From a virus (Duplodnaviria; Heunggongvirae; Uroviricota; Caudoviricetes): DNA of 25,153 nt. The stretch lies in IMG/VR virus record IMGVR_UViG_2740892236_000003, one strand, 5' to 3'. The notes below the pieces were generated by a model. That model ran no database searches and was not told the origin of the DNA. It worked only from the letters and a program-made list of their open reading frames with translations. The translations under genes were made by a program, and so were the position numbers. Positions 1 through 24,639 of the stretch are shown piece by piece. Every line of letters begins with the position of its first letter. The stretch's first letter is position 1.

Positions 1-51
1 ACAGAAGCCACTGGAGCACCTCAAAAACACCATCATACACTAAATCAGTAA

Positions 52-507
52 GTTGGCAGCATCACCAGCGAAGGTGATAACCGTTACCTGCGCAGGGAGC
101 AGAACGGCGCAGACATTCCGGATAAAGGGGCTTTTATCGATAACGTCGGTTTACGGGAAACGGTAAACAGGGCGGCGAATGCTCTGCCATCGGACGGCAC
201 CGCCGTTGCCGCGAATAGACTCGCCACCCCAAGAAATATTAATGGGGTTCCCTTTGACGGGACGCAGGACATAAACATCACTTCTGGTATAACACAGCAG
301 GATGCGGATTCCCGATATATCCAGGATATCAGGCTGGGAGCAGAGAACAGGCAGGTAATGTACGGTGGGGCATATTACTCTGCGTACGGTAATGTTATGG
401 CAGGCCTGCAGATTGACAGTAAAGTTGATGCTTCAAACGATTTTATAGCATTCAGACCCCTGCAAAAATTAGTCGGAGGTACATGGATTACGGTATCTCA
501 GTTATAA
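52..507 (+). CDS. Tail fibre C-terminal tip cassette (Sv-like), start-less, ~151 codons
   Basis: Frame 1 is open from 52 to TAA at 505-507 with no ATG or GTG near its 5' end. Translation ...[50 protein letters not shown]...[17 protein letters not shown]...[11 protein letters not shown] contains a GL(R/Q)ETVNRA(A/G)NA motif as recalled from P2 H at its constant/variable junction. In-frame TAA at 49-51, and stops in the other two frames at 41-43 and 75-77. Confidence 0.6.
134..159. other. Left invertase crossover site (gix/hix/cix-like, 26 bp)
   Basis: TTATCGATAACG-TC-GGTTTACGGGAA: two 12-nt half-sites around a central dinucleotide. It resembles Mu gixL as I recall it (TTATCCAAAACCTCGGTTTACAGGAA). 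Inverted relative to the site at 1451-1476 (central TC versus GA). Confidence 0.6.
134..249. repeat. Left arm of imperfect inverted repeat (~116 bp)
   Basis: The reverse complement of 134-249 aligns with 1341-1476 at roughly 85% identity by eye: identical runs of 23, 29 and 37 nt separated by a divergent ~25-nt patch. It encodes the shared N-proximal part of both fibre cassettes. Confidence 0.7.
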
Positions 508-558
508 ATAGTCAGTAAATAATATATTTTAAAACAGATTTATTTCCAGGAGGATTTT

Positions 559-1080
559 ATGGAACTAAAAAATATAACCCGTTATTATCCTGAAAATATG
601 CCATATGGTAATAATGTTCAGTATTTCCAGAGTGAAGATGGTAAGGATTTCTACGAATCCCTGCCATTATTCACCAAAAAATATAAACTTTGCATAACAC
701 CTGACAGCGGCGTTATCTGCTCAATATCACAGGACGCCTCGGCGCTGTATCCTGCGGGGTTTTCTGTGGTTGAGGTCGATGAACTCCCTGAAGGCACGGA
801 TATTTCAGGAAACTGGAAGTTTGATAATGGCATAATCTCCCGTATTCCGGTTAACTACGCAAGAAAACTGGAAGCAATGCGCCAGTCATATCTTAATCAG
901 GCATATGAAAAAATTAATGACTGGAGAACGGAGCTACAACTGGGCACCATCAGCGATGAAGACAGAGCAGCACTTACCCAATGGATGGCATACATCAGTC
1001 AGGTGAAGAAAATGGAACTACCCGCCATTAAAACAGAAGCTGAATTTAACGCCATTAAATGGCCTGAGCAGCCACAGTAA
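559..1080 (+). CDS. tfa: Tail fibre assembly protein (Tfa / Mu U-like chaperone)
   Basis: 173 aa. AGGAGG lies 6 nt upstream of the ATG. Sits immediately downstream of the fibre tip cassette. The C-terminal region (DEDRAALTQWMAYISQVKKMELPAIKTEAEFNAIKWPEQPQ) is typical of phage Tfa chaperones. The gene is AT-rich relative to the late operon. Confidence 0.8.
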   Translation: MELKNITRYYPENMPYGNNVQYFQSEDGKDFYESLPLFTKKYKLCITPDSGVICSISQDASALYPAGFSVVEVDELPEGTDISGNWKFDNGIISRIPVNYARKLEAMRQSYLNQAYEKINDWRTELQLGTISDEDRAALTQWMAYISQVKKMELPAIKTEAEFNAIKWPEQPQ

Positions 1081-1083
1081 TAA

Positions 1084-1103
1084 AGAAGGCCGGAAGGCCT
1101 TCT
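1084..1103. terminator. Hairpin between convergent tfa and minus-strand fibre cassette (possible bidirectional terminator)
   Basis: AGAAGGCC-GGAA-GGCCTTCT: perfect 8-bp stem with a 4-nt loop, flanked by AT-rich sequence on both sides. It lies exactly between the stop codons of the two convergent ORFs. Confidence 0.4.
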
Positions 1104-1111
1104 GAATATCA

Positions 1112-1495
1112 TTATATACTTGCAGCCGTCACCCATGCTCCATTTAACAGATACTGCAACGGCCGGTAATACACGCCGCCGACGTTATCTGCCGTATTCT
1201 TACCGACATCCTGTACTTTAATTCCGGTAAGAACATTGCCGCCCCCCAGATTCAGATCCCAGCTTTCCCATGTTCCGGGCATATGTGCGGTCACCGACCC
1301 CAGTCTTATGGCGGTTACTGTTCCTGATGAGATAGTGATATCCTGCGTCCCGTCAAAGGGAACACCATTAATTGTGTGGGCATTTGCCAGCCTGTTCGCG
1401 GCAACGGCGGTGCCGTCCGATGGCAGGGCATTCGCCGCCCTGTTTACCGTTTCCCGTAAACCGAGGTTTTCAGGAAAGCCAGGATTAACTCTGTT
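1112..1495 (-). CDS. Alternative tail fibre C-terminal tip cassette (S'v-like), start-less, ~127 codons
   Basis: The minus-strand frame is open from 1495 (just after an in-frame TAA at 1498-1496) to the stop at 1112. Translation ...[49 protein letters not shown]... then diverges into a different tip, ...HMPGTWESWDLNLGGGNVLTGIKVQDVGKNTADNVGGVYYRPLQYLLNGAWVTAASI. The first ~40 residues after the crossover site are shared with the plus-strand cassette. The Met reported by the ORF track at 1294 is an internal GTG. Confidence 0.6.
   Translation of the reverse strand, partial: NRVNPGFPENLGLRETVNRAANALPSDGTAVAANRLANAHTINGVPFDGTQDITISSGTVTAIRLGSVTAHMPGTWESWDLNLGGGNVLTGIKVQDVGKNTADNVGGVYYRPLQYLLNGAWVTAASI
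1341..1476. repeat. Right arm of imperfect inverted repeat
   Basis: Reverse-complement partner of 134-249; see the left arm. Confidence 0.7.
1451..1476. other. Right invertase crossover site (gix-like, 26 bp)
   Basis: TTCCCGTAAACC-GA-GGTTTTCAGGAA. Its reverse complement, TTCCTGAAAACC-TC-GGTTTACGGGAA, shares the inner half-site exactly with the left site. It lies 66 bp upstream of the invertase start, as gixR does for gin in Mu. Confidence 0.6.
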
Positions 1496-1541
1496 TTATT
1501 CCTCATGCGACAATTCCGGCTTTTTATAATAAGGAAATCGT

Positions 1542-2114
1542 ATGCTGATTGGGTATATCAGGGTGTCAACAAATGACCAGAATACGGCGCTACAAAGAAA
1601 TGCGCTGGAATGTGCAGGATGTGAGCTGTTTTTCGAAGACAGAATAAGCGGTAAGACAAGGGAGCGTCCCGGACTTAAACGCGCATTAAAGCGACTCCGG
1701 CCAGGGGATACCCTGCTGGTCTGGAAACTGGATCGCCTTGGACGCAGTATGCAGCACCTTGTCCTTTTAACAGAAGAACTCCGGCAACGCGGCGTTAACT
1801 TCCGCAGCATTACGGACAATATTGATACATCCACTCCCATGGGACGTTTCTTTTTCCATATAATGGGCGCGCTGGCGGAAATGGAGCGGGAACTCATTAT
1901 TGAACGTACACGCGCGGGTCTTGCTGCTGCCCGTGCTCAGGGGCGTCATGGCGGCAGACCTCAGAAACTGACAGAGAAAGAGCGGGAGCAAATCGCCCGT
2001 TTGCTGGCTAATGGCGAGTCCCGTAAACAAATCGCACTGATATTTGATATTGGCCTTTCCACCCTTTATCGTTATTTTCCTGCCTCACCAGCTCCGTCAC
2101 CAAAAGTACCGTGA
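1542..2114 (+). CDS. Serine DNA invertase (Gin/Pin/Hin/Cin family)
   Basis: 190 aa. The N-terminus MLIGYIRVSTNDQ carries the catalytic-serine motif of small serine recombinases; a resolvase-like core follows, and the C-terminus (QIALIFDIGLSTLYRY) is a helix-turn-helix. AAGGA lies upstream of the ATG. The gene abuts the invertible segment and reads away from it. Confidence 0.9.
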   Translation: MLIGYIRVSTNDQNTALQRNALECAGCELFFEDRISGKTRERPGLKRALKRLRPGDTLLVWKLDRLGRSMQHLVLLTEELRQRGVNFRSITDNIDTSTPMGRFFFHIMGALAEMERELIIERTRAGLAAARAQGRHGGRPQKLTEKEREQIARLLANGESRKQIALIFDIGLSTLYRYFPASPAPSPKVP

Positions 2115-2123
2115 CGCTTTTTT
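2095..2123 (+). terminator. Putative intrinsic terminator at the 3' end of the invertase gene
   Basis: CGTCAC-(10-nt loop)-GTGACG followed by C and TTTTTT (2118-2123). The stem overlaps the TGA stop codon. Confidence 0.45.
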
Positions 2124-2199
2124 GAATTTCCGCAAAACACATATTTTTCAGCGGTCGCTATTCTGACTCTGTTTAATTCAGAAACAGGCAGAAAAGACG

Positions 2200-4254
2200 A
2201 TGTCAGACTCCAAGTGGAAAATGCTCTCCGCCATGCCCGGAGAGTTTTCAGTCAAGGTTGCCGGTGGCACGGTGGCATTTATTGAAAGCCCTTTCCGCCC
2301 TTCGGGTAATAAAGGGGGGATCACCTTCGCAGACTGCGTGATCCGCTTCAGCACGAAAGAGCCATTATGGGTAATGCCGGTATCCGGTAATCCCAGTGCA
2401 GAAATCACCAGTTCAGGCGTGACTGGCATCATTCCAATCACATCTGACGTGGCCGGAACGCTCACGCCCTCCGACTGGAATGCACCGGATAACGCCGGGC
2501 CTTCCGGTAGCACGAATGGCAGCAGTTCAGAGCCGGAATATTACTTTGTTGTCATTCTCGCGGGTCAGTCAAATGGCATGGCCTACGGCGAGGGGCTGCC
2601 GTTACCGGATTCGTTTGACCGCCCGGACCCACGCATTAAGCAACTGGCACGCCGCAGTACGGTAACGCCCAACGGTACGTCGTGTACATACAACGACATC
2701 ATTCCGGCAGACCACTGCCTGCATGATGTTCAGGATATGAGCGGGATAAACCACCCGAAAGCTGATCTGGCAAAAGGCCAGTACGGGACTGTCGGTCAGG
2801 GGTTGCATATTGCCAAAAAACTGCTTCCCTATATCCCACAGAATGCCGGGATACTTCTGGTGCCCTGTTGTCGTGGCGGGTCAGCATTCACCACTGGAGC
2901 CGACGGCTCATTCAGTGAGGCCAGCGGTGCTTCCGCTGATTCTTCACGCTGGGGGGCCGGTAAACCTCTGTATCAGGACCTGGTAAGCCGCACCAAAGTC
3001 GCGCTGGCGAAAAACCCGAAAAACAAACTTCTGGCTGTGGTCTGGATGCAGGGAGAGGCAGACCTTGCCTCAGGAAGCCAGCAGCATAATAGTTTATTCA
3101 CGGCCATGGTTCAGCAGTTCAGAACTGACCTGGCTCCGCTTGCTGCGCAGTGCGTGAGTGGAAATGCCACCACGGTGCCGTGGATTTGCGGTGATACCAC
3201 GTATTACTGGAAAAACGCTGGCACCGATAAATATGAGGCAGTATACGGTGGCTACAAAGGCAAGGAAGCACAGAAAATTTTCTTTGTACCGTTCCTGACG
3301 GATGAGAATGGACAGAGCACGCCAACGAATGCTCCGGCGGAAGACCCGGATATTGTGGCTGTCGGGTATTACGGTGCAGCATCCCGAACCCAGGGCAGTT
3401 TTGTTTCGACACAGCGTGACAGCCATTTCAGCTCATGGGCACGCAGGGGCGTCATTTCAGACCGTCTGGCCTCAGCTATTATGCTCCATGCAGGGCGCAC
3501 GGCTGAACTGATGCGCGGGCAGACCGTGACACCACCGGATGAGAAGCCGTCACCTGATACACCATCAAAACCGTCCACGCCACCCGCAGACACCACGACG
3601 ATGAGTACGCTATTTGCTTACCGGGCATCTGAGTCTGAAGGACGGTTGACACCACAGGGTTGGGCTGCCGGAGGTGGCAAGGCTCAAATCGTGGATGATG
3701 CCGGAGCCAGCGGGGGTAAGGCAATGAAACTGACCAAGGAAACAGGAAGAGCCCCCTGGTACCTTGAGCATGATGCTGGTAATGGTGCGGACCTGCTGGG
3801 TAAAGGTGGTCTTGTCAGTTGTCGTTTTAAACTCGATGGCGCGCTTACGGCTAATCAGTACGCACTGGCGCTGTACTGGCCGGTTTCTGCCCTGCCGCAA
3901 GGGGTTACTCTGGAAGGAAATGCCGGTCATAACCTGCTGGCATCGTTCTACGTACAGAGCGATGCCACAGACCTTAACGTGATGTATCACAAAGGAAACA
4001 CGGCGCAGAACACGAAGCTGGGGTCATTCGGCGCATTTAATAACGAATGGCATACGCTGGGCTTCCGTTTTGCCGGTAACAACAGTATTGAGGTGACGCC
4101 GGTCATTGATGGTAAGGACGGGACACCATTCATGCTGTCGCAGTCTCCGGTCGGCACGTTTACGGCAGACAAGTTGCGCGTGACCGATATCACTAAAAAT
4201 GCGACTTACCCGGTACTGATTGACAGTATCGTGGTGGAAGTGAATAACGCGTAA
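2200..4254 (+). CDS. Multidomain SASA/SGNH-type carbohydrate O-acetylesterase-like protein (NanS-like) with Pro/Thr linker and C-terminal putative binding domain
   Basis: 684 aa. VVILAGQSNGMAYGEG (nt ~2545-2590) matches the GQSN catalytic block, and AVVWMQGEADL (nt ~3030-3060) the QGE(S/A)D block, of sialate O-acetylesterase (SASA) family hydrolases, both recalled from memory. A Pro/Thr-rich linker (PPDEKPSPDTPSKPSTPPADTT) precedes a ~230-aa C-terminal region that looks like a beta-sandwich or lectin-like domain. No N-terminal signal peptide is apparent. The RBS is weak and the start codon uncertain. Confidence 0.55.
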   Translation: MSDSKWKMLSAMPGEFSVKVAGGTVAFIESPFRPSGNKGGITFADCVIRFSTKEPLWVMPVSGNPSAEITSSGVTGIIPITSDVAGTLTPSDWNAPDNAGPSGSTNGSSSEPEYYFVVILAGQSNGMAYGEGLPLPDSFDRPDPRIKQLARRSTVTPNGTSCTYNDIIPADHCLHDVQDMSGINHPKADLAKGQYGTVGQGLHIAKKLLPYIPQNAGILLVPCCRGGSAFTTGADGSFSEASGASADSSRWGAGKPLYQDLVSRTKVALAKNPKNKLLAVVWMQGEADLASGSQQHNSLFTAMVQQFRTDLAPLAAQCVSGNATTVPWICGDTTYYWKNAGTDKYEAVYGGYKGKEAQKIFFVPFLTDENGQSTPTNAPAEDPDIVAVGYYGAASRTQGSFVSTQRDSHFSSWARRGVISDRLASAIMLHAGRTAELMRGQTVTPPDEKPSPDTPSKPSTPPADTTTMSTLFAYRASESEGRLTPQGWAAGGGKAQIVDDAGASGGKAMKLTKETGRAPWYLEHDAGNGADLLGKGGLVSCRFKLDGALTANQYALALYWPVSALPQGVTLEGNAGHNLLASFYVQSDATDLNVMYHKGNTAQNTKLGSFGAFNNEWHTLGFRFAGNNSIEVTPVIDGKDGTPFMLSQSPVGTFTADKLRVTDITKNATYPVLIDSIVVEVNNA

Positions 4255-4269
4255 GCAGGATAAAAAAAT

Positions 4270-4302
4270 GCCGCCGGTAAGGGAAAACAAGAAACCGGCG
4301 GC
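4270..4302 (-). terminator. GC-rich hairpin with a T-tract on the minus strand only
   Basis: GCCGCCGGT-(15-nt loop)-ACCGGCGGC, a 9-bp stem. On the plus strand it is followed by A-rich sequence, so it is a poor terminator for the esterase gene. On the minus strand it is followed by TTTTTTT. Confidence 0.3.
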
Positions 4303-4398
4303 AAAAAGATCGTTATATCCAAAGCAAAAAATGCAGTGCACCTTTTTACCTAACAGATATTACCGGTGTCAACACCATGTCAATAATTGGGAGGGATA

Positions 4399-4581
4399 AT
4401 GACATTTTTACAGCTTATTTTATTGTATTTCTGCACGGCAGTATGTGCGTTATATCTGGTGAGTGGTGGTTATAAGGCCATCAGAAATTATGTTCGCCGC
4501 AAAATTGAGGACGCAGCAGCTGAAAAACTCAGTAAAACAGCGCAGGTAACTCCGCTCCCAAAAGACCCGACCCAGCCCTGA
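4399..4581 (+). CDS. Small single-pass membrane protein (hypothetical)
   Basis: GGGAGGG lies 4-5 nt upstream of the ATG at 4399; the ORF track starts the frame at a TTG at 4387. The product is ~60 aa: a hydrophobic N-terminal segment (FLQLILLYFCTAVCALYLVSGGY) followed by a charged tail. Confidence 0.4.
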   Translation: MTFLQLILLYFCTAVCALYLVSGGYKAIRNYVRRKIEDAAAEKLSKTAQVTPLPKDPTQP

Positions 4582-4616
4582 TTGCAGGGCTTTATTCCCG
4601 CATAAGGAGGATATAC

Positions 4617-4871
4617 ATGCCAGAAATTAAAGGCACCGTCACTGAAGACCTGGTAAAACAGGCACTGTATTCCGGTGAAGTAAATAAGTTGCTGAAAGCG
4701 CAGGTCCGCAAGGATTTTGAGGCACAAATCGACACTTACGTTGATGAAGTGCTGGCAAAACTTATTGGGCCAGCAGTTGCGGCCAGTGATGCTGATAATG
4801 AGCCGAAAACCGACGCGCAGCCAGAGCAACCAGACCCGGCTCAGCCCGGAACTGACAGTACCATGATGTAA
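4617..4871 (+). CDS. Small acidic hypothetical protein
   Basis: 84 aa. A strong AAGGAGG lies 7 nt upstream of the ATG. The C-terminal half is acidic and Pro/Gln-rich. No recognisable family. Confidence 0.45.
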   Translation: MPEIKGTVTEDLVKQALYSGEVNKLLKAQVRKDFEAQIDTYVDEVLAKLIGPAVAASDADNEPKTDAQPEQPDPAQPGTDSTMM

Positions 4872-5264
4872 CAATACAAACCGGTGGTGTCCTCTGCCGG
4901 TTTGACACTAATGAAAACATCTTTGCCGCTATCCAGCCATATGTAATCGCTGGATAGTATTTCGTATTCAGAAATATAGCTGCTTATGGAGCAGTCAATC
5001 CTGCTTCCCCATCCGGGCAGGCAAATGAACCGGTATCATTAGTCCGATTCACGCTTTTGTAGAATCGTTCCCAGAATGCTATACAGCTCATTAGCCTGTT
5101 GCTCCATCATTGAGACGGAGGCTATACGGTGCAAAGTGATTTCAGGAGGTGGCACACCTCCATCTTCTTGCTGTGGAGGAAAAACATAAGATTTAATAAA
5201 AAAAGTTGAAGCATATGAACTCTCCCGCACTCGAACTGTATTTGCAGGCATCTGAATAATCGGA

Positions 5265-5274
5265 NNNNNNNNNN
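5265..5274. other. Assembly gap (10 N)
   Basis: A run of N. It truncates the minus-strand tail fibre ORF, and the translation beyond it is not protein-like. Confidence 0.95.
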
Positions 5275-5724
5275 TTTGCTGTAAACATCCAGATTATTAC
5301 GGGCGGTTCCCTTATTCTCCAGGTCGGCGAGATTCTGATCCTTCGCCAGGGCATTAACGTCAGCGGGACCAAGACTGTTTTTTGTGGCAAGCGTCCCCAG
5401 ACCAAGATAACCACGGGCCAGACGCTGGGCCTCCGCACCGGCATCAGCAATTTCTTTCAGGTTATTTTTCCGGGAAAAGGCATTCGCAGCGATAATGGCT
5501 TTAATGGACAGCGTAAGCTGGTTTAACTGCGCCTTATCCGGCTGAATACTGGCTTCAGCCAGAATATTCAGCAGTTCGGCCTGGAGAATATTCAGCCAGT
5601 CCTGACCAATCCAGCTGATACCTTTTTGTCCGTCACCTTCGGTAAACCAGGTGGTGGTATTACTCTGCGCCGGTGCCAGCGCAGGCATATTCGCCACGCC
5701 GGAATTATTATCAACATGAAACAT
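5275..5724 (-). CDS. Tail fibre protein, N-terminal constant part (Mu S-like), truncated by the gap
   Basis: The ATG at 5724 overlaps the stop of the upstream gp48-like gene (TAATG). The N-terminus MFHVDNNSGVANMPALAPAQSNTTTWFTEGDGQ... and the motif ...GYLGLGTLATKNSLGPADVNALAKDQNLADLENKGTARNNLDVYSK are typical of the N-terminal region of contractile-tail phage fibres. Only 150 codons are present before the N-run. Confidence 0.7.
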
Positions 5725-18010: not shown

Positions 18011-19134
18011 TATTGCATTTCCTCTTTCATTTTCAGGAACTCGGCTTCGGTTTTACCCAGCAGATGGGCGGCGGCGATATCTTCAGCCGACAGCGCAGCG
18101 GTGGCGGTCTTTTTATCCGGCACGGTTACGGTGTCGGTCTGAAGAGTGGTCAGAGCCGCAACCGGCTGGCGGGCGTCAAGCTGTGCAGAAAGTGCCGCAA
18201 CACCAATCTGTTGTCCGAGTCCTTCCATGTATCCGCGTTCGCTTTTGAAAATGCGTCCTTCGGACTCGGCCTTATCCAGCAACTGCTCCAGCGTGGTGCT
18301 GCCGTGTTGTGCCGACAACGCGACATATTCGGTACGCAGGGCGTTATACGTCTCAACGGGCACGTATTTCGTCAGATCAATAGTGCCGCCAGTTGGTGTG
18401 CCTTTTGCGGTTTCCAGCTCTGCCGACAGGCTGGCAACCTGCGTTTTCAGGGTGTCGTGCGCATCCGCACGGGTTTTGATCCCGGTAAGGGCAGACAGCG
18501 CCGCCGTGCCCAGTTCCGGTGTAAATTCGTCACCGTCGGCCACGGTCAGACCGAGCGCCGTCAGCAACTGGCGTAATTGCTCATTCATGGAGGTGTCCTT
18601 TAAAGGAGGGTTTAAGGCGTTATAAAGGTCATCCGCCGACAGTGCGGCGACAGGATTCATGCCAGTCAGACCGGGGTCACCGGTAATAGCCAGCATCCGA
18701 AGCTCAACAGGTTCACCGGTGATTTCGTCATAACCAATCACCGGGGAAAACCAGGGAAATTCGTTATTGCGCAGGTGTTCAATGGCCGGAGGGTTCCAGT
18801 CCGGACGCACTTCAAAACCCCGCTCTTCACTGAAGCGGAAGTTTTCCGGTGAGGCCATGACAAAACCGGCAGCCGGTGCCGGATGCCCCTTAATCAGGGT
18901 CTGGTGGTTGTAGTCAATTTTTACCGGCTGATTGAGCGCCACAACCCGGGATACCATGCGCTCAACGGCCGCATGGTTAATCAGCCAGCCTTCCGCCGGT
19001 TTTTCCGGGCGACCGTCACGGGCCTTTACCCGACCGGCTGGCATGATCTGACACCAGTCACCGTCCCCGTCTGCGGATAGGCTGATGGCATTCAGAATGG
19101 CATAAGCAAGTTTGGGCGTGTTTTTCGTCTTCAT
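18010..19134 (-). CDS. Head maturation protease/scaffold (Mu I-like)
   Basis: 374 aa. An N-terminal protease-like region is followed by an Ala/Leu/Thr-rich coiled C-terminal half, as in Mu gpI. Confidence 0.8.
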   Translation of the reverse strand: MKTKNTPKLAYAILNAISLSADGDGDWCQIMPAGRVKARDGRPEKPAEGWLINHAAVERMVSRVVALNQPVKIDYNHQTLIKGHPAPAAGFVMASPENFRFSEERGFEVRPDWNPPAIEHLRNNEFPWFSPVIGYDEITGEPVELRMLAITGDPGLTGMNPVAALSADDLYNALNPPLKDTSMNEQLRQLLTALGLTVADGDEFTPELGTAALSALTGIKTRADAHDTLKTQVASLSAELETAKGTPTGGTIDLTKYVPVETYNALRTEYVALSAQHGSTTLEQLLDKAESEGRIFKSERGYMEGLGQQIGVAALSAQLDARQPVAALTTLQTDTVTVPDKKTATAALSAEDIAAAHLLGKTEAEFLKMKEEMQ

Positions 19135-22811: not shown

Positions 22812-24639
22812 TACCAGCCCCCCCGATCAAATTCATGATATGCCTCATCGTCATCACGATAACCGCCCTCCATTGCCCGCGACCGCTCCGGTAGCGCCTG
22901 ACAGGCTGATTCATCCAGGATGAAGCCCTCCATGTATGACGCCCGGTTTGCCATACAGAGCGCCACGGCAAAATCACCATGGCGGCGGGCGTTCGCAGCC
23001 GTTGCGTTCTGGTCCTTCGTGCGCCCCTTGTCGATTTGCGGGATACCATTCACTACCTTCACATGGCGCAAATCATCAAGCGTGGTCTGATGGCGGGCGA
23101 CGAGGATATTCTGATCTTCAAACTCGGCTTTCAGTTTTGGCATCCACTCGCCGTACCACTTCGGCGACAACATCACGCAGTCGATGATGTCCGGGCCAAA
23201 GGCCAGCAGTGCGGCCTCTGCCAGATAGCCGCCGTTACCGGTGGCGTCGAACGCCGCACCGACCAGCGCCGGAACGCGGGTCAGGATGTACATCATCACC
23301 TGTTCCTGCTGGGCATACGGCAGGTTGCGCAGCTCCACGCGAAACACCTCGCGCTTTGCCAGGGATTCGGTGATTTCCAGCAGCACAAAGCAGGACAGGT
23401 CACCGGTGCGGGCAAAGTCTTCCCCGAAGCTGAAGCGGGAACGGGGATTTAATTTCTCTAAAAGCGGTTTTAAATGTTCTTCACACCAGGTTAAAACTTC
23501 CGATTCACGCAGCCATGCGGCACGGCTGATGAAGTTGTCCGGGGCTTCAAACGTCAGAATCGGGATGTCGCGGATCATCGCCATTTCAATAAGCGCGTGG
23601 GGGATATAGGCACCGCCGGATTTTTTCGGGATACAGCCGTATTCCTCGTCGGCATCCTCACGGGTCGGGGCATTTTTGTAGAGATCATCACGCCATTTCT
23701 GCTCGCTTTCCGGTGACCATTCCTGATCGGTGACGTAACAGATACGACGGTACAGCCCGTCCGCAATGGCATCATCCAGGGTTATGCGGTGGACGCTGTA
23801 ATCCTTGCGCCCCTCGCGGGCTTCCTGAATGTACTGATTAAACAGATTATCGACGCCGTTATGCGTGGAGATAATACGCACGCGCGCGCCCCACATAGTG
23901 AGCGCCATTGCCGCCTTGAGAAGTTCATCCAGCGACTCGTGGAACGCGGCTTCATCAATCACCACATCCCCCTGAAGGCCGCGCAGGTTTGACGGACGGG
24001 AAGACAATGCCTGAATTTTGAATCCACTGTTCGGAAAGCGGATCATGTAGGTCAAAATTTCTTCTTTTTTATCCCGATCCCAGAATGTCTGCTCATACAC
24101 ATCAGCATCTGCCAGCTGGTTAAAGGCACGGGAGAACAGCGCGCAGGCAGAAATATATTCCAGCGCCATCTCCTGCTTTGATCCCACATAAAACACATTG
24201 CGGCCACCACGACGCTTCGGTTTTGCAGCAGTAATGACGTTACGCCCGGCTTCCGCCCAGGTAAGACCGGTGCGGCGGGATTTTTCCGCAATGCAGACCT
24301 GACTTTCATCCTCAAACCAGCGGGCCTGATAATCCAGAAACACCGGCATATCACCGGGCAAATCAAGTCTGTCCGGCACATCCACGCCCAGCAGGGCTTT
24401 TTCACCGGACAGATCAATTTTGCGGGGAGGCGTCNNNNNNNNNNCTCCGCGATGCAGACCTGACTTTCATCTGCAAACCAGCGGGCCTGATAATCCAGAA
24501 ACACCGGCATATCACCGGGCAAATCAAGGCTGTCCGGCACATCCACGCCCAGCAGGGCTTTTTCACCGGACAGATCAATTTTGCGGGGAGGCGTCATTTG
24601 CATCAGTGAAGGCGACGTTTCTCTGGCTTTGTTCATCAT
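22811..24639 (-). CDS. Terminase large subunit (Mu gp28-like), interrupted by assembly gap and duplicated overlap
   Basis: The ORF-track pieces 22811-24385 and 24052-24639 are one gene. The N-terminal segment ...DVPD(S/R)LDLPGDMPVFLDYQARWF(A/E)DESQVCIAE is encoded twice, either side of the N-run, and the apparent start at 24385 is an internal GTG. The true start is the ATG at 24639 (MMNKARETSPSLMQ...), overlapping the stop of the upstream gene. Estimated ~555-560 aa once the duplicate is collapsed. Confidence 0.85.
24285..24594. repeat. Two 150-bp near-identical direct copies flanking a 10-N gap (unmerged contig overlap)
   Basis: 24285-24434 and 24445-24594 differ at about 4 positions. The N-run at 24435-24444 lies between them. 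Confidence 0.9.

Follow-up and report, generated by a model that had tools for sequence, protein, structure and literature searches.

The window analyzed here is a 25,153-nucleotide stretch of viral DNA (IMG/VR record IMGVR_UViG_2740892236_000003). As the first-pass annotation of its sequence had proposed, it holds a Mu-like prophage in which an esterase gene comes immediately behind the invertase gene. The esterase and its surroundings comprise the following features.

1..66, no strand: IS1 end of 66 bp, bordering on codon 151 of the tail-fibre gene
67..507, plus strand: C-terminal part of the tail-fibre gene, placed by comparison with complete genomes
139..1471, no strand: invertible tail-fibre segment with an 86-nt inverted repeat at either end (139-224 and 1386-1471)
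1542..2114, plus strand: Gin-type serine DNA invertase, intact, 190 aa (Pfam Resolvase and HTH_7)
2200..4254, plus strand: esterase gene, ATG start, 684 aa, 100% identical to RefSeq WP_001284083.1
4399..4581, plus strand: DUF1378 small single-pass membrane protein, second cassette gene (Pfam PF07125, E 1e-31)
4617..4871, plus strand: DUF826 protein, third cassette gene (Pfam PF05696, E 6e-16; synteny)
5039..5264, minus strand: orphan small ORF, truncated by the N run; its full length is 86 aa in complete genomes (WP_000571916.1)
5265..5274, no strand: run of 10 N, a contig join and not a physical junction (complete-genome comparison)
5275..5724, minus strand: N-terminal 150 codons of the tail-fibre gene, lying apart from the rest of the gene in the window
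24435..24444, no strand: second run of 10 N, flanked by 151-nt near-identical overlaps (146/151)

The invertible segment contains a tail-fibre assembly gene (559-1080), and both of its orientations were seen among E. coli genomes. Complete genomes have the tail-fibre part at 67..507 fused without interruption to the N-terminal part (5724..5275, minus strand). Set against these genomes, the window as assembled carries its esterase block (67-5264) in the opposite orientation to the Mu-like tail-gene block, which may be a true inversion between IS1 copies or a scaffolding artefact. Positions 1-66 match more than 5000 plasmid records with 100% identity, under features labelled 'IS1 family transposase'. 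The window is a patchwork of draft contigs, not contiguous DNA; a real adjacency in which the tail genes converge on the esterase was rejected, as the N10 joins, the IS1 sequence at the window's edge, and the gene arrangement of complete genomes all speak against it. A scan of positions 1400-5264 for promoters and terminators returned no convincing candidate, with site counts not above those of shuffled sequence, and an alignment of the gin-esterase spacer revealed partial conservation and no recognisable promoter.

The esterase is annotated under WP_001284083.1 as either a 'DUF6645 domain-containing protein' or a 'sialate O-acetylesterase'. Its 684 residues are divided as follows (all on the plus strand).

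2200..2445: N-terminal orphan domain, aa 1-82, predicted all-beta (AF2 pLDDT, homologue searches)
2446..2544: Ser/Gly/Pro-rich linker, aa 83-115 (pLDDT <50 for aa 83-108)
2545..3489: catalytic SASA / NanS-like domain, aa 116-430 (3PT5 match, motifs, block definitions of PMC10462455)
2569-2571: codon of the putative nucleophile Ser124 (alignment to NanS, GQSN motif)
3424-3426: codon of the putative catalytic His409 (alignment to NanS, block IV)
3490..3603: Pro/Thr/Ser-rich interdomain linker, aa ~431-468, TVTPPDEKPSPDTPSKPSTPPADTTT (from the sequence)
3604..4251: C-terminal lectin-like jelly-roll domain (DUF6645), aa 469-684 (6YP6 and Pfam DUF6645)

Solved structures that match the sequence were used to assign these domains because the full-length AlphaFold2 model, obtained with a 21-sequence alignment, was unusable (mean pLDDT 43). 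Against Pfam, the protein matched SASA (PF03629) at aa 117-312 (E 1.5e-13, 51 bits compared to a cut-off of 24.8) and DUF6645 (PF20350) at aa 533-650 (E 7e-68). The solved structure of NanS (3PT5) aligned with aa 110-428 (E 1.8e-117), and that of the NanS-p C-domain (6YP6) aligned with aa 469-683 (E 7e-98). The first-pass annotation had called an ORF with SASA/SGNH esterase motifs, a Pro/Thr linker, and a C-terminal carbohydrate-binding domain, and had pointed to the NanS-p enzymes of Stx phages as comparable; each of these calls was borne out. The motifs are real (GQSN at aa 122-125 and QGEAD at aa 284-288), the profile search placed SASA above its cut-off and matched DUF6645 as well, the linker is seen as a Pro/Thr/Ser-rich stretch, the Pfam, 3PT5, and 6YP6 matches fit a NanS-like esterase with a C-terminal binding domain, and the closest characterised relatives by sequence match are the NanS-p enzymes. 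The predicted lack of a signal peptide also held: in a simple hydropathy check with no dedicated predictor, the first 65 aa contained no signal-peptide-like hydrophobic stretch (maximal Kyte-Doolittle 15-residue mean, 1.08). A pseudogene or remnant was ruled out, as the ORF is undisrupted, recurs without change in many genomes, and shows a dN/dS of ~0.1 in all domains. Judged by its sequence matches, the 684-aa protein is by family a real, intact sialate O-acetylesterase of the NanS-p type.

We then compared the two C-terminal domains with those of characterised enzymes. In the alignment to 3PT5, Ser124 and His409 pair with chain positions 30 and 312, which correspond to Ser19 and His301 of NanS after subtracting an 11-residue tag. 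Ser19 and His301 reportedly form the catalytic dyad of NanS; by this alignment, Ser124/His409 is a conserved, putative catalytic dyad. The catalytic domain is alignable end to end with that of chromosomal NanS (YjhS, 9-O-acetyl-N-acetylneuraminate esterase, 3PT5), and the nucleophile Ser and the His are shared; however, NanS is a single-domain protein of 326 aa, whereas the phage-borne protein adds an N-domain, two linkers, and a C-terminal binding domain. NanS belongs to the nanCMS sialic-acid operon. The variant SGNH blocks, as defined in PMC10462455, are all present, with GQSN at 122, QGE at 284, and block IV at 406-409; block IV reads RDSH in the window esterase, in contrast to RSSH or RASH in published NanS-p alleles (PMC10462455). 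Four proposed binding-site aromatics are also kept, namely Y554, Y559, Y584, and F654, which were mapped from Y510, Y515, Y540, and F611 of 933W (PMC10462455).

The NanS-p enzymes of Stx phages (933W L0105/z1466; phi24B vb_24B_21/gp84; 6YP6) have in common with the window esterase the SASA domain, the variant SGNH blocks, the jelly-roll C-domain with its aromatics, and the Pro/Ser/Thr-rich linkers. Identity to L0105 of 933W is 65% over aa 94-683, and the catalytic and C-domains are 88-93% identical to those of DUF1737-type NanS-p of lambdoid prophages. The window esterase differs from the NanS-p of Stx phages in length (684 aa vs 636-657 aa), in its N-terminus, where DUF1737 is missing and a beta domain of ~80 aa, unrelated to it, precedes a longer linker, in its carrier (a transposable Mu-like myovirus prophage vs lambdoid phage), and in its location (after gin and before com-mom vs between Q/stx and the lysis genes).

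Close homologues of the esterase fall into two classes, DUF1737 and non-DUF1737. A Pfam search of the window esterase gave no match to DUF1737 (PF08410), and its N-terminal 95 aa yielded partial alignments with 19-31% identity to 933W and lambdoid alleles that are not meaningfully alignable. Residues 7-79 of the N-domain reach AF2 pLDDT values of ~70-89 and are predicted to form a compact beta domain, with a flexible linker after it. This domain had no match in Pfam or PHROG, no informative fold match in structure comparison, no likeness to known adaptor domains in PHROG and fold searches, and no paralogue elsewhere in the prophage. Word-indexed sequence searches recovered only fragments of the same esterases, and an exhaustive search of 1.84 billion proteins gave four matches, one of them useful (Salmonella P0006). 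The N-domain was found only in esterases of Mu-like prophages: in E. coli, where it has two subtypes (~60% identity), and in Salmonella, with one form at 30% identity. Purifying selection acts on it, and the esterases that bear it each sit downstream of tail-fibre and invertase genes. Nucleotide similarity to lambdoid nanS-p breaks off at position 2532 (aa 112), within the linker. Read from this breakpoint, DUF1737 is swapped for an orphan, predicted beta domain of ~80 aa exactly at residue 112, and such a replacement of DUF1737 in a Mu-like lineage has not been described before.

The gene neighbourhood was compared across nine E. coli Mu-like prophages, which are inserted at different chromosomal sites. 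The order in complete E. coli genomes is gin, esterase, DUF1378, DUF826, the small ORF, com, and then mom or a C5 cytosine methyltransferase. The DUF1378 gene starts at ATG 4399 according to RefSeq vs TTG 4387 in the mechanical ORF. The small ORF (WP_000571916.1), which lies between DUF826 and com in these relatives, had no match in Pfam or PHROG. The first-pass annotation had placed the esterase in a slot equivalent to that of mom; however, com and mom (or com and the C5 methyltransferase) are still found ~1 kb downstream of the esterase cassette in all nine prophages, and comparison of the gene content after the invertase showed that the esterase does not replace mom. The truly variable modification slot is the position after com. 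The right end of phage Mu resembles that of the relatives of the window, with a Gin-type invertase beside an invertible tail-fibre segment and com-mom at the right end, but Mu has gin-com-mom without an insert (zero genes between gin and com), whereas the window lineage has an insert of ~3.3 kb consisting of the esterase cassette and the orphan ORF.

A blastn comparison with a lambdoid locus (L012) revealed 88% nucleotide identity from position 2532 to position 4533. In this locus the order is RusA, Q, ..., esterase, DUF1378, DUF826, holin, lysozyme, and Rz1. DUF1378 thus has its place after nanS-p in a lambdoid locus likewise, and the literature reports it there too; the DUF1378 and DUF826 genes found downstream of NanS-p in lambdoid phages are both retained behind the window esterase. 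On this nucleotide identity and gene order, esterase-DUF1378-DUF826 is the same cassette as the one upstream of the holin in lambdoid phages.

The esterase had been regarded at first as unexpected for a Mu-like phage, a view that did not survive the survey of its distribution: it belongs to the standard gene set of the Sp18-type lineage of Mu-like prophages. All Sp18-like Mu prophages that we examined carry it, including Sp18 of E. coli O157:H7 Sakai (ECs_4993). The esterase of Sp18-like Mu prophages was found in about 230 of the 5426 complete genomes, and ECs_4993 and its homologues were found in 205 of 5426 complete E. coli genomes. ECs_4993 has the architecture, the N-domain family, and the position (gin-esterase-DUF1378-DUF826-orf-com-mom) in common with the window esterase, but identity between the two is only ~60% for the N-domains and ~70% for the catalytic and C-domains. 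The catalytic/C-terminal core of the window esterase is much closer to lambdoid alleles than to ECs_4993, which indicates, at the level of sequence, that Mu-like and lambdoid phages exchanged the core of the cassette by recombination. The esterase stays intact in heavily deleted prophages in which gin is frameshifted; this preservation may reflect recent decay and not selection because the intact copies in the decayed prophages do not differ from those of undamaged ones (100% identity). A literature search found no paper on ECs_4993, DUF6645, or a sialate O-acetylesterase in a Mu-like phage. The NanS-p-type esterases studied so far are those of lambdoid Stx prophages. Such an esterase also resides in a Mu-like lineage that about 4% of complete E. 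coli genomes harbour, O157:H7 Sakai among them, and this copy is easily missed when nanS-p alleles are counted. Apart from its different N-domain, which is its sole unusual feature, the esterase is an ordinary member of the known NanS-p family and routine in one E. coli Mu-like lineage.

We consider it likely that the window gene is accessory cargo of the Sp18-type Mu-like lineage and that its product, a NanS-p-family esterase, acts after lysis in the manner of NanS-p. Our comparisons show the family of the two C-terminal domains, the conservation of catalytic and binding residues, the gene order, and the distribution. In the protein, an SGNH-like serine esterase domain that contains the putative Ser124/His409 dyad is joined to a glycan-binding domain of the lectin-like jelly-roll type. 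Its gene is an accessory ('moron') gene of Sp18-type Mu-like prophages in E. coli and Shigella, part of a three-gene cassette (esterase, DUF1378, and DUF826) that separates gin from the com-mom modification module. Lambdoid phages have this cassette between Q/stx and holin, and its core has been swapped between the two phage types by recombination. The substrate, the timing of expression, and the route to the substrate we infer. NanS-p alleles have esterase activity on Neu5,9Ac2 and mucin glycans and benefit the growth of lysogens (reviewed in PMC8065619), and the most likely action of the window esterase is the one shown for them. The protein, which has no export signal, would be made inside the cell and be released into the mucus of the host when the phage lyses the cell, perhaps bound to particles. 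In the mucus, it would remove 9-O-acetyl groups from the sialic acids of mucin glycans, and the sialic acid would become usable by surviving lysogens. The orphan N-domain, which stands in for capsid-binding DUF1737, probably serves this lineage for docking or oligomerisation. Substrate specificity could differ, for example toward O-acetylated O-antigen or capsule, because the catalytic domain is only ~65-70% identical to that of the assayed alleles.

It is possible, albeit doubtful, that the esterase decorates the Mu-like virion as a structural enzyme, docked via the orphan N-domain. Such a reading concerns the delivery route and is compatible with the mucus-esterase explanation; mucus or the surface of bacteria would be the target of the displayed esterase and lectin domains. 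In phi24B, the NanS-p protein gp84 is a capsid decoration protein, abundant in the virion, which is anchored by an N-terminal DUF1737 domain that forms hexamers on the capsid hexons (2026 preprint). The first-pass annotation had offered two functions, a glycan esterase freed by lysis and a virion-associated enzyme, and the gp84 result makes the second more plausible. Decoration is favoured by the clean replacement of DUF1737 at aa 112 in a protein that is otherwise 88-93% identical to lambdoid alleles, by the restriction of the N-domain to esterases of Mu-like prophages downstream of tail-fibre and invertase genes, by the purifying selection on this domain, and by its predicted compact beta fold followed by a flexible linker. 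A role of the N-domain as virion anchor is plausible. In a broader and equally tentative form, NanS-p-type esterases might be modular 'display enzymes' that swap anchors, with DUF1737 on lambdoid/P2-like phages and the orphan N-domain on Mu-like contractile-tailed particles, and the Mu-like virion might display an active sialate or glycan O-acetylesterase. At stake is whether esterases are delivered on phage particles and how anchor modules suit different virions; because DUF1737 is reported as a capsid anchor (preprint), the clean N-domain swap offers a testable handle on particle delivery and on anchor adaptation to different virions. Apart from this anchor-domain question, the gene is ordinary.

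We regard as improbable a role of the esterase in unmasking receptors, in which it would deacetylate O-antigen, capsule (e.g., O-acetylated polysialic acid), or another surface glycan and thereby aid adsorption or block superinfection, as with SGNH-type tailspikes. Receptor unmasking has been raised for NanS-p (PMC8065619), the gene adjoins a host-range module (tail fibre, invertible segment, and invertase), and there are weak matches to a minor tail protein of an Arthrobacter phage with a SASA domain (29% identity) and to phrog_25867, a 'tail protein' (E 1e-6). However, the catalytic domain is much closer to sialate-specific NanS (E 2e-117) than to any tailspike esterase, its core is common to the lambdoid alleles shown to be active on sialic acids, and neither a tail-attachment domain nor a trimeric beta-helix signature was recognised in the protein. 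Finally, a defence or DNA-modification cargo in place of mom deserves almost no credence: the esterase begins 85 bp after the invertase stop, much as com lies 95 bp after gin in Mu, but the window merely stops at a contig join ahead of com-mom, nothing in the protein relates to nucleic-acid chemistry by Pfam or structure matches, and the gene order in complete genomes, with Com and Mom, or Com and the C5 methyltransferase, downstream in every relative examined, rules it out.

The open reading frame at 2200–4254 (+) starts with ATG and encodes a protein of 684 aa (the esterase), in which Pfam detected SASA (PF03629, aa 117–312, E 1.5e-13) and DUF6645 (PF20350, aa 533–650, E 7e-68). The GQSN motif starts at aa 122 and QGEAD at aa 284, an R-D-S-H block occupies aa 406–409, and a Pro/Thr-rich linker spans aa ~431–468; a simple hydropathy check found no segment resembling a signal peptide. 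The gene directly upstream encodes a serine invertase, in which Pfam identified Resolvase and HTH_7 domains. The first-pass annotation, which had reported the ORF, a SASA/SGNH-type enzyme with GQSN and QGEAD motifs, the linker, the lack of a signal peptide and the adjacent invertase, was accurate in these respects. The features discussed are:

225–1385, Gin-type invertible tail-fibre segment, flanked by inverted repeats at 139–224 and 1386–1471 (86 nt, 93% complementarity)
1542–2114 (+), serine invertase gene (gin)
2200–4254 (+), esterase gene
5039–5264 (−), orphan 86-aa ORF between DUF826 and com; 24972–25232 in L001, the DLI.5a locus
12221–13472 in L004 and 9283–10489 in L006, two E. coli relatives, Com-like zinc-finger gene followed by a Dcm-type C5 cytosine methyltransferase gene, not Mom; this region lies beyond the contig end of the window

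Comparison with solved structures matched aa 110–428 to chromosomal NanS/YjhS (3PT5, E 1.8e-117) and aa 469–683 to the NanS-p C-terminal domain (6YP6, E 7e-98). Chain positions 30 and 312 of 3PT5 pair with Ser124 and His409 of the esterase; after subtraction of the 11-residue tag they correspond to Ser19 and His301, which reportedly form the catalytic dyad of NanS. For the C-domain of phi24B, a carbohydrate-binding site made up of four aromatic residues has been proposed, Y510, Y515, Y540 and F611 (PMC10462455); these correspond to Y554, Y559, Y584 and F654, all four of them aromatic. A tblastn search of phage genomes returned 349 records, nearly all from Stx-converting phages, at ~65% identity over aa 94–683, among them L0105 of 933W, the founding NanS-p. 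The likeness to NanS-p drawn in the first-pass annotation was thus borne out. The esterase agrees with NanS-p in its catalytic and C-terminal domains but not in the N-terminal DUF1737 or the lambdoid context, and the best-supported reading of its sequence is a putative sialate O-acetylesterase of the NanS-p kind.

The likeness extends to neighbouring genes. The interval from nanS-p to the holin gene S is reported to hold DUF1378 and DUF826 in Stx phages, and the same two genes are the cassette partners of the esterase. In a lambdoid locus the order is RusA, Q, ..., esterase, DUF1378, DUF826, holin, lysozyme and Rz1, and window positions 2532–4533 are 88% identical to this locus at the nucleotide level.

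The family itself is known, and the one distinctive feature of the esterase is its N-terminus without DUF1737. Published NanS-p proteins start with a DUF1737 domain; Pfam found none in the esterase. There, residues 1 to ~82 make up a domain of their own, with a Ser/Gly-rich linker after it. Two classes can be told apart among close homologues: proteins of 680–691 aa without DUF1737, 83–100% identical over the full length, and proteins of 647–650 aa with DUF1737, which are 88–93% identical in the catalytic and C-terminal domains and have an N-terminus that cannot be aligned to the esterase. The nucleotide breakpoint relative to the lambdoid locus falls at aa 112, exactly where the catalytic domain begins. 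Every occurrence found of the replacement N-domain was in an esterase of a Mu-like prophage. In E. coli it occurs as two subtypes with ~60% mutual identity, the window type and the Sp18 type (including ECs_4993 of Sakai), and a homologue in Salmonella enterica is 30% identical, its esterase gene likewise following Mu-like baseplate, tail-fibre and invertase genes. The N-domain is under purifying selection (dN/dS 0.07 versus CI5; pN 0.26 and pS 0.76 versus Sp18, where pS is saturated).

According to a 2026 preprint (bioRxiv 10.64898/2026.04.10.717836), phi24B contains NanS-p gp84 in full length as an abundant structural protein; its DUF1737 is seated on capsid hexons as a hexamer, and processing of gp84 at its linkers follows later. 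If DUF1737 is a particle anchor, an enzyme displayed on the virion would be expected to have exactly this module exchanged when its phage builds a different particle, and by analogy the N-domain might anchor the esterase to the Mu-like virion. We consider this somewhat improbable, as P2-like phages, too, have esterases of the DUF1737 type, located after their lysis genes, and the N-domain resembles no known decoration or adaptor domain. Escherichia phage vB_EcoM-569R5 (Peduoviridae) carries a DUF1737+SASA esterase immediately after its lysis genes (L014, 2770–4020); the range of NanS-p-type esterases therefore covers lambdoid, P2-like and Mu-like phages, three types at the least.

The element that bears the esterase is a transposable Mu-like prophage. 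The complete HH35 prophage, about 38 kb, carries in order repressor, transposase A and B, gam, mor and lysis genes, then head and tail genes, the tail fibre and the invertible segment, and at its right end gin, esterase, DUF1378, DUF826, the 86-aa ORF on the opposite strand, com and mom. The host gene that is hit differs per genome (bglJ, ypdB, a diguanylate cyclase gene, flgL, yfcU, sorM in Sakai, or another prophage), as expected of a Mu-type element. Most of the prophages compared share the right-end order gin-esterase-DUF1378-DUF826-(orf)-com-mom; the E. coli M3 prophage lacks gin, and CI5 and Mu_JNE082796 have a C5 cytosine methyltransferase after com in place of mom. In phage Mu nothing lies between gin and com-mom, whereas the E. 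coli lineage has an insert of ~3.3 kb between gin and com. The esterase belongs to this insert and so does not occupy the mom slot, where the first-pass annotation had placed it; the variable DNA-modification slot is the gene after com, as the C5 methyltransferases of the two relatives indicate; in these two, Com may have another modification enzyme under its control. The orphan 86-aa ORF had no match in Pfam or PHROG. Its place is taken by a 154-aa ORF in Sp18-type prophages and by small unrelated ORFs in CI5 and KY203, and the DUF826-com interval looks like a second small variable spot.

DNA specific for the window-type N-domain was present in 32 of 5426 complete E. coli genomes and DNA specific for the Sp18 type in 205, including O157:H7 Sakai (annotated 'prophage Sp18, Mu-like phage'); the two counts overlap, as both types coexist in some genomes, and their sum is not a valid total. 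Mu-like baseplate genes of the same lineage occurred in 229–230 complete E. coli genomes. The identical RefSeq protein is WP_001284083.1, whose 90% cluster has 599 member sequences; our literature search found no paper discussing it or the Sp18-lineage esterase. The esterase, which the first-pass annotation had considered unexpected in a Mu-like phage, thus seems to belong to the regular gene set of this prophage lineage; that annotation held for the family and the NanS-p comparison, and failed for the mom slot and the unexpectedness.

For other NanS-p alleles, a review (PMC8065619) describes activity towards Neu5,9Ac2 and towards mucin glycans in mono-, di- and tri-O-acetylated form, and notes that these alleles enable lysogens to use Neu5,9Ac2 for growth. 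Since the esterase has no export signal, its access to an extracellular substrate would depend on phage lysis, on transport by particles, or on the two together. A scan of 1400–5264 gave no convincing promoter or terminator, and the 85-bp spacer after gin is partially conserved between subtypes, with no recognisable signal in their alignment. The prophages of DLI.5a and AST46 are heavily deleted copies that have lost most structural genes and carry a frameshifted invertase (L001 21476–22047; L002 21497–22068); their esterase, DUF1378, DUF826, com and mom are all preserved intact, with no difference from the copies in complete prophages. Retention of the esterase would fit a benefit to the host, but the evidence is weak, given 100% identity between these copies and the ones in intact prophages.

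The invertible segment has the window orientation in DLI.5a and TOE17 and is reversed in HH35 and about 10 others; as these E. coli genomes are otherwise near-identical, the switch has been active. The window itself is a composite of three or more draft contigs. Two gaps of exactly 10 N, at 5265–5274 and 24435–24444, interrupt it; the 151-nt flanks of the second match each other at 146/151 positions and are overlapping contig ends, concatenated but unmerged. Positions 1–66 are the terminal 66 bp of IS1 (100% identity to >5000 plasmid records, under 'IS1 family transposase' features), and no target-site duplication was visible at this junction. The reverse complement of the sequence from 5275 onward comprises Mu-like tail genes and closes with codons 1–150 of the tail-fibre gene; the sequence from 67 onward holds the rest of that gene, followed by the invertible segment, gin and the esterase. 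Complete E. coli genomes, for example HH35 (NZ_CP136993.2), join the two directly, so the block 67–5264, bounded by the IS1 end and a contig join, is flipped relative to the tail-gene block. Possible causes of this flip are an inversion mediated by IS1, a mixture of two copies of a Mu-like prophage and an artefact of scaffolding; the convergence of tail genes on the esterase in the window is not trustworthy as a physical arrangement. The tail-fibre gene is split at codon 150/151 in the window.

Two minor observations concern the head region. RefSeq annotates a 'tRNA-OTHER' at 25226–25305 of the HH35 prophage locus (L003), between virion morphogenesis and minor head genes, a region that corresponds to ~19.8 kb in the window; ARAGORN found no tRNA anywhere in the window. 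Positions 18591–18975 (~385 bp), in the head protease/scaffold region, gave no megablast match to the HH35 prophage, to which the window is 96–98% identical elsewhere, and are a locally divergent (mosaic) segment.
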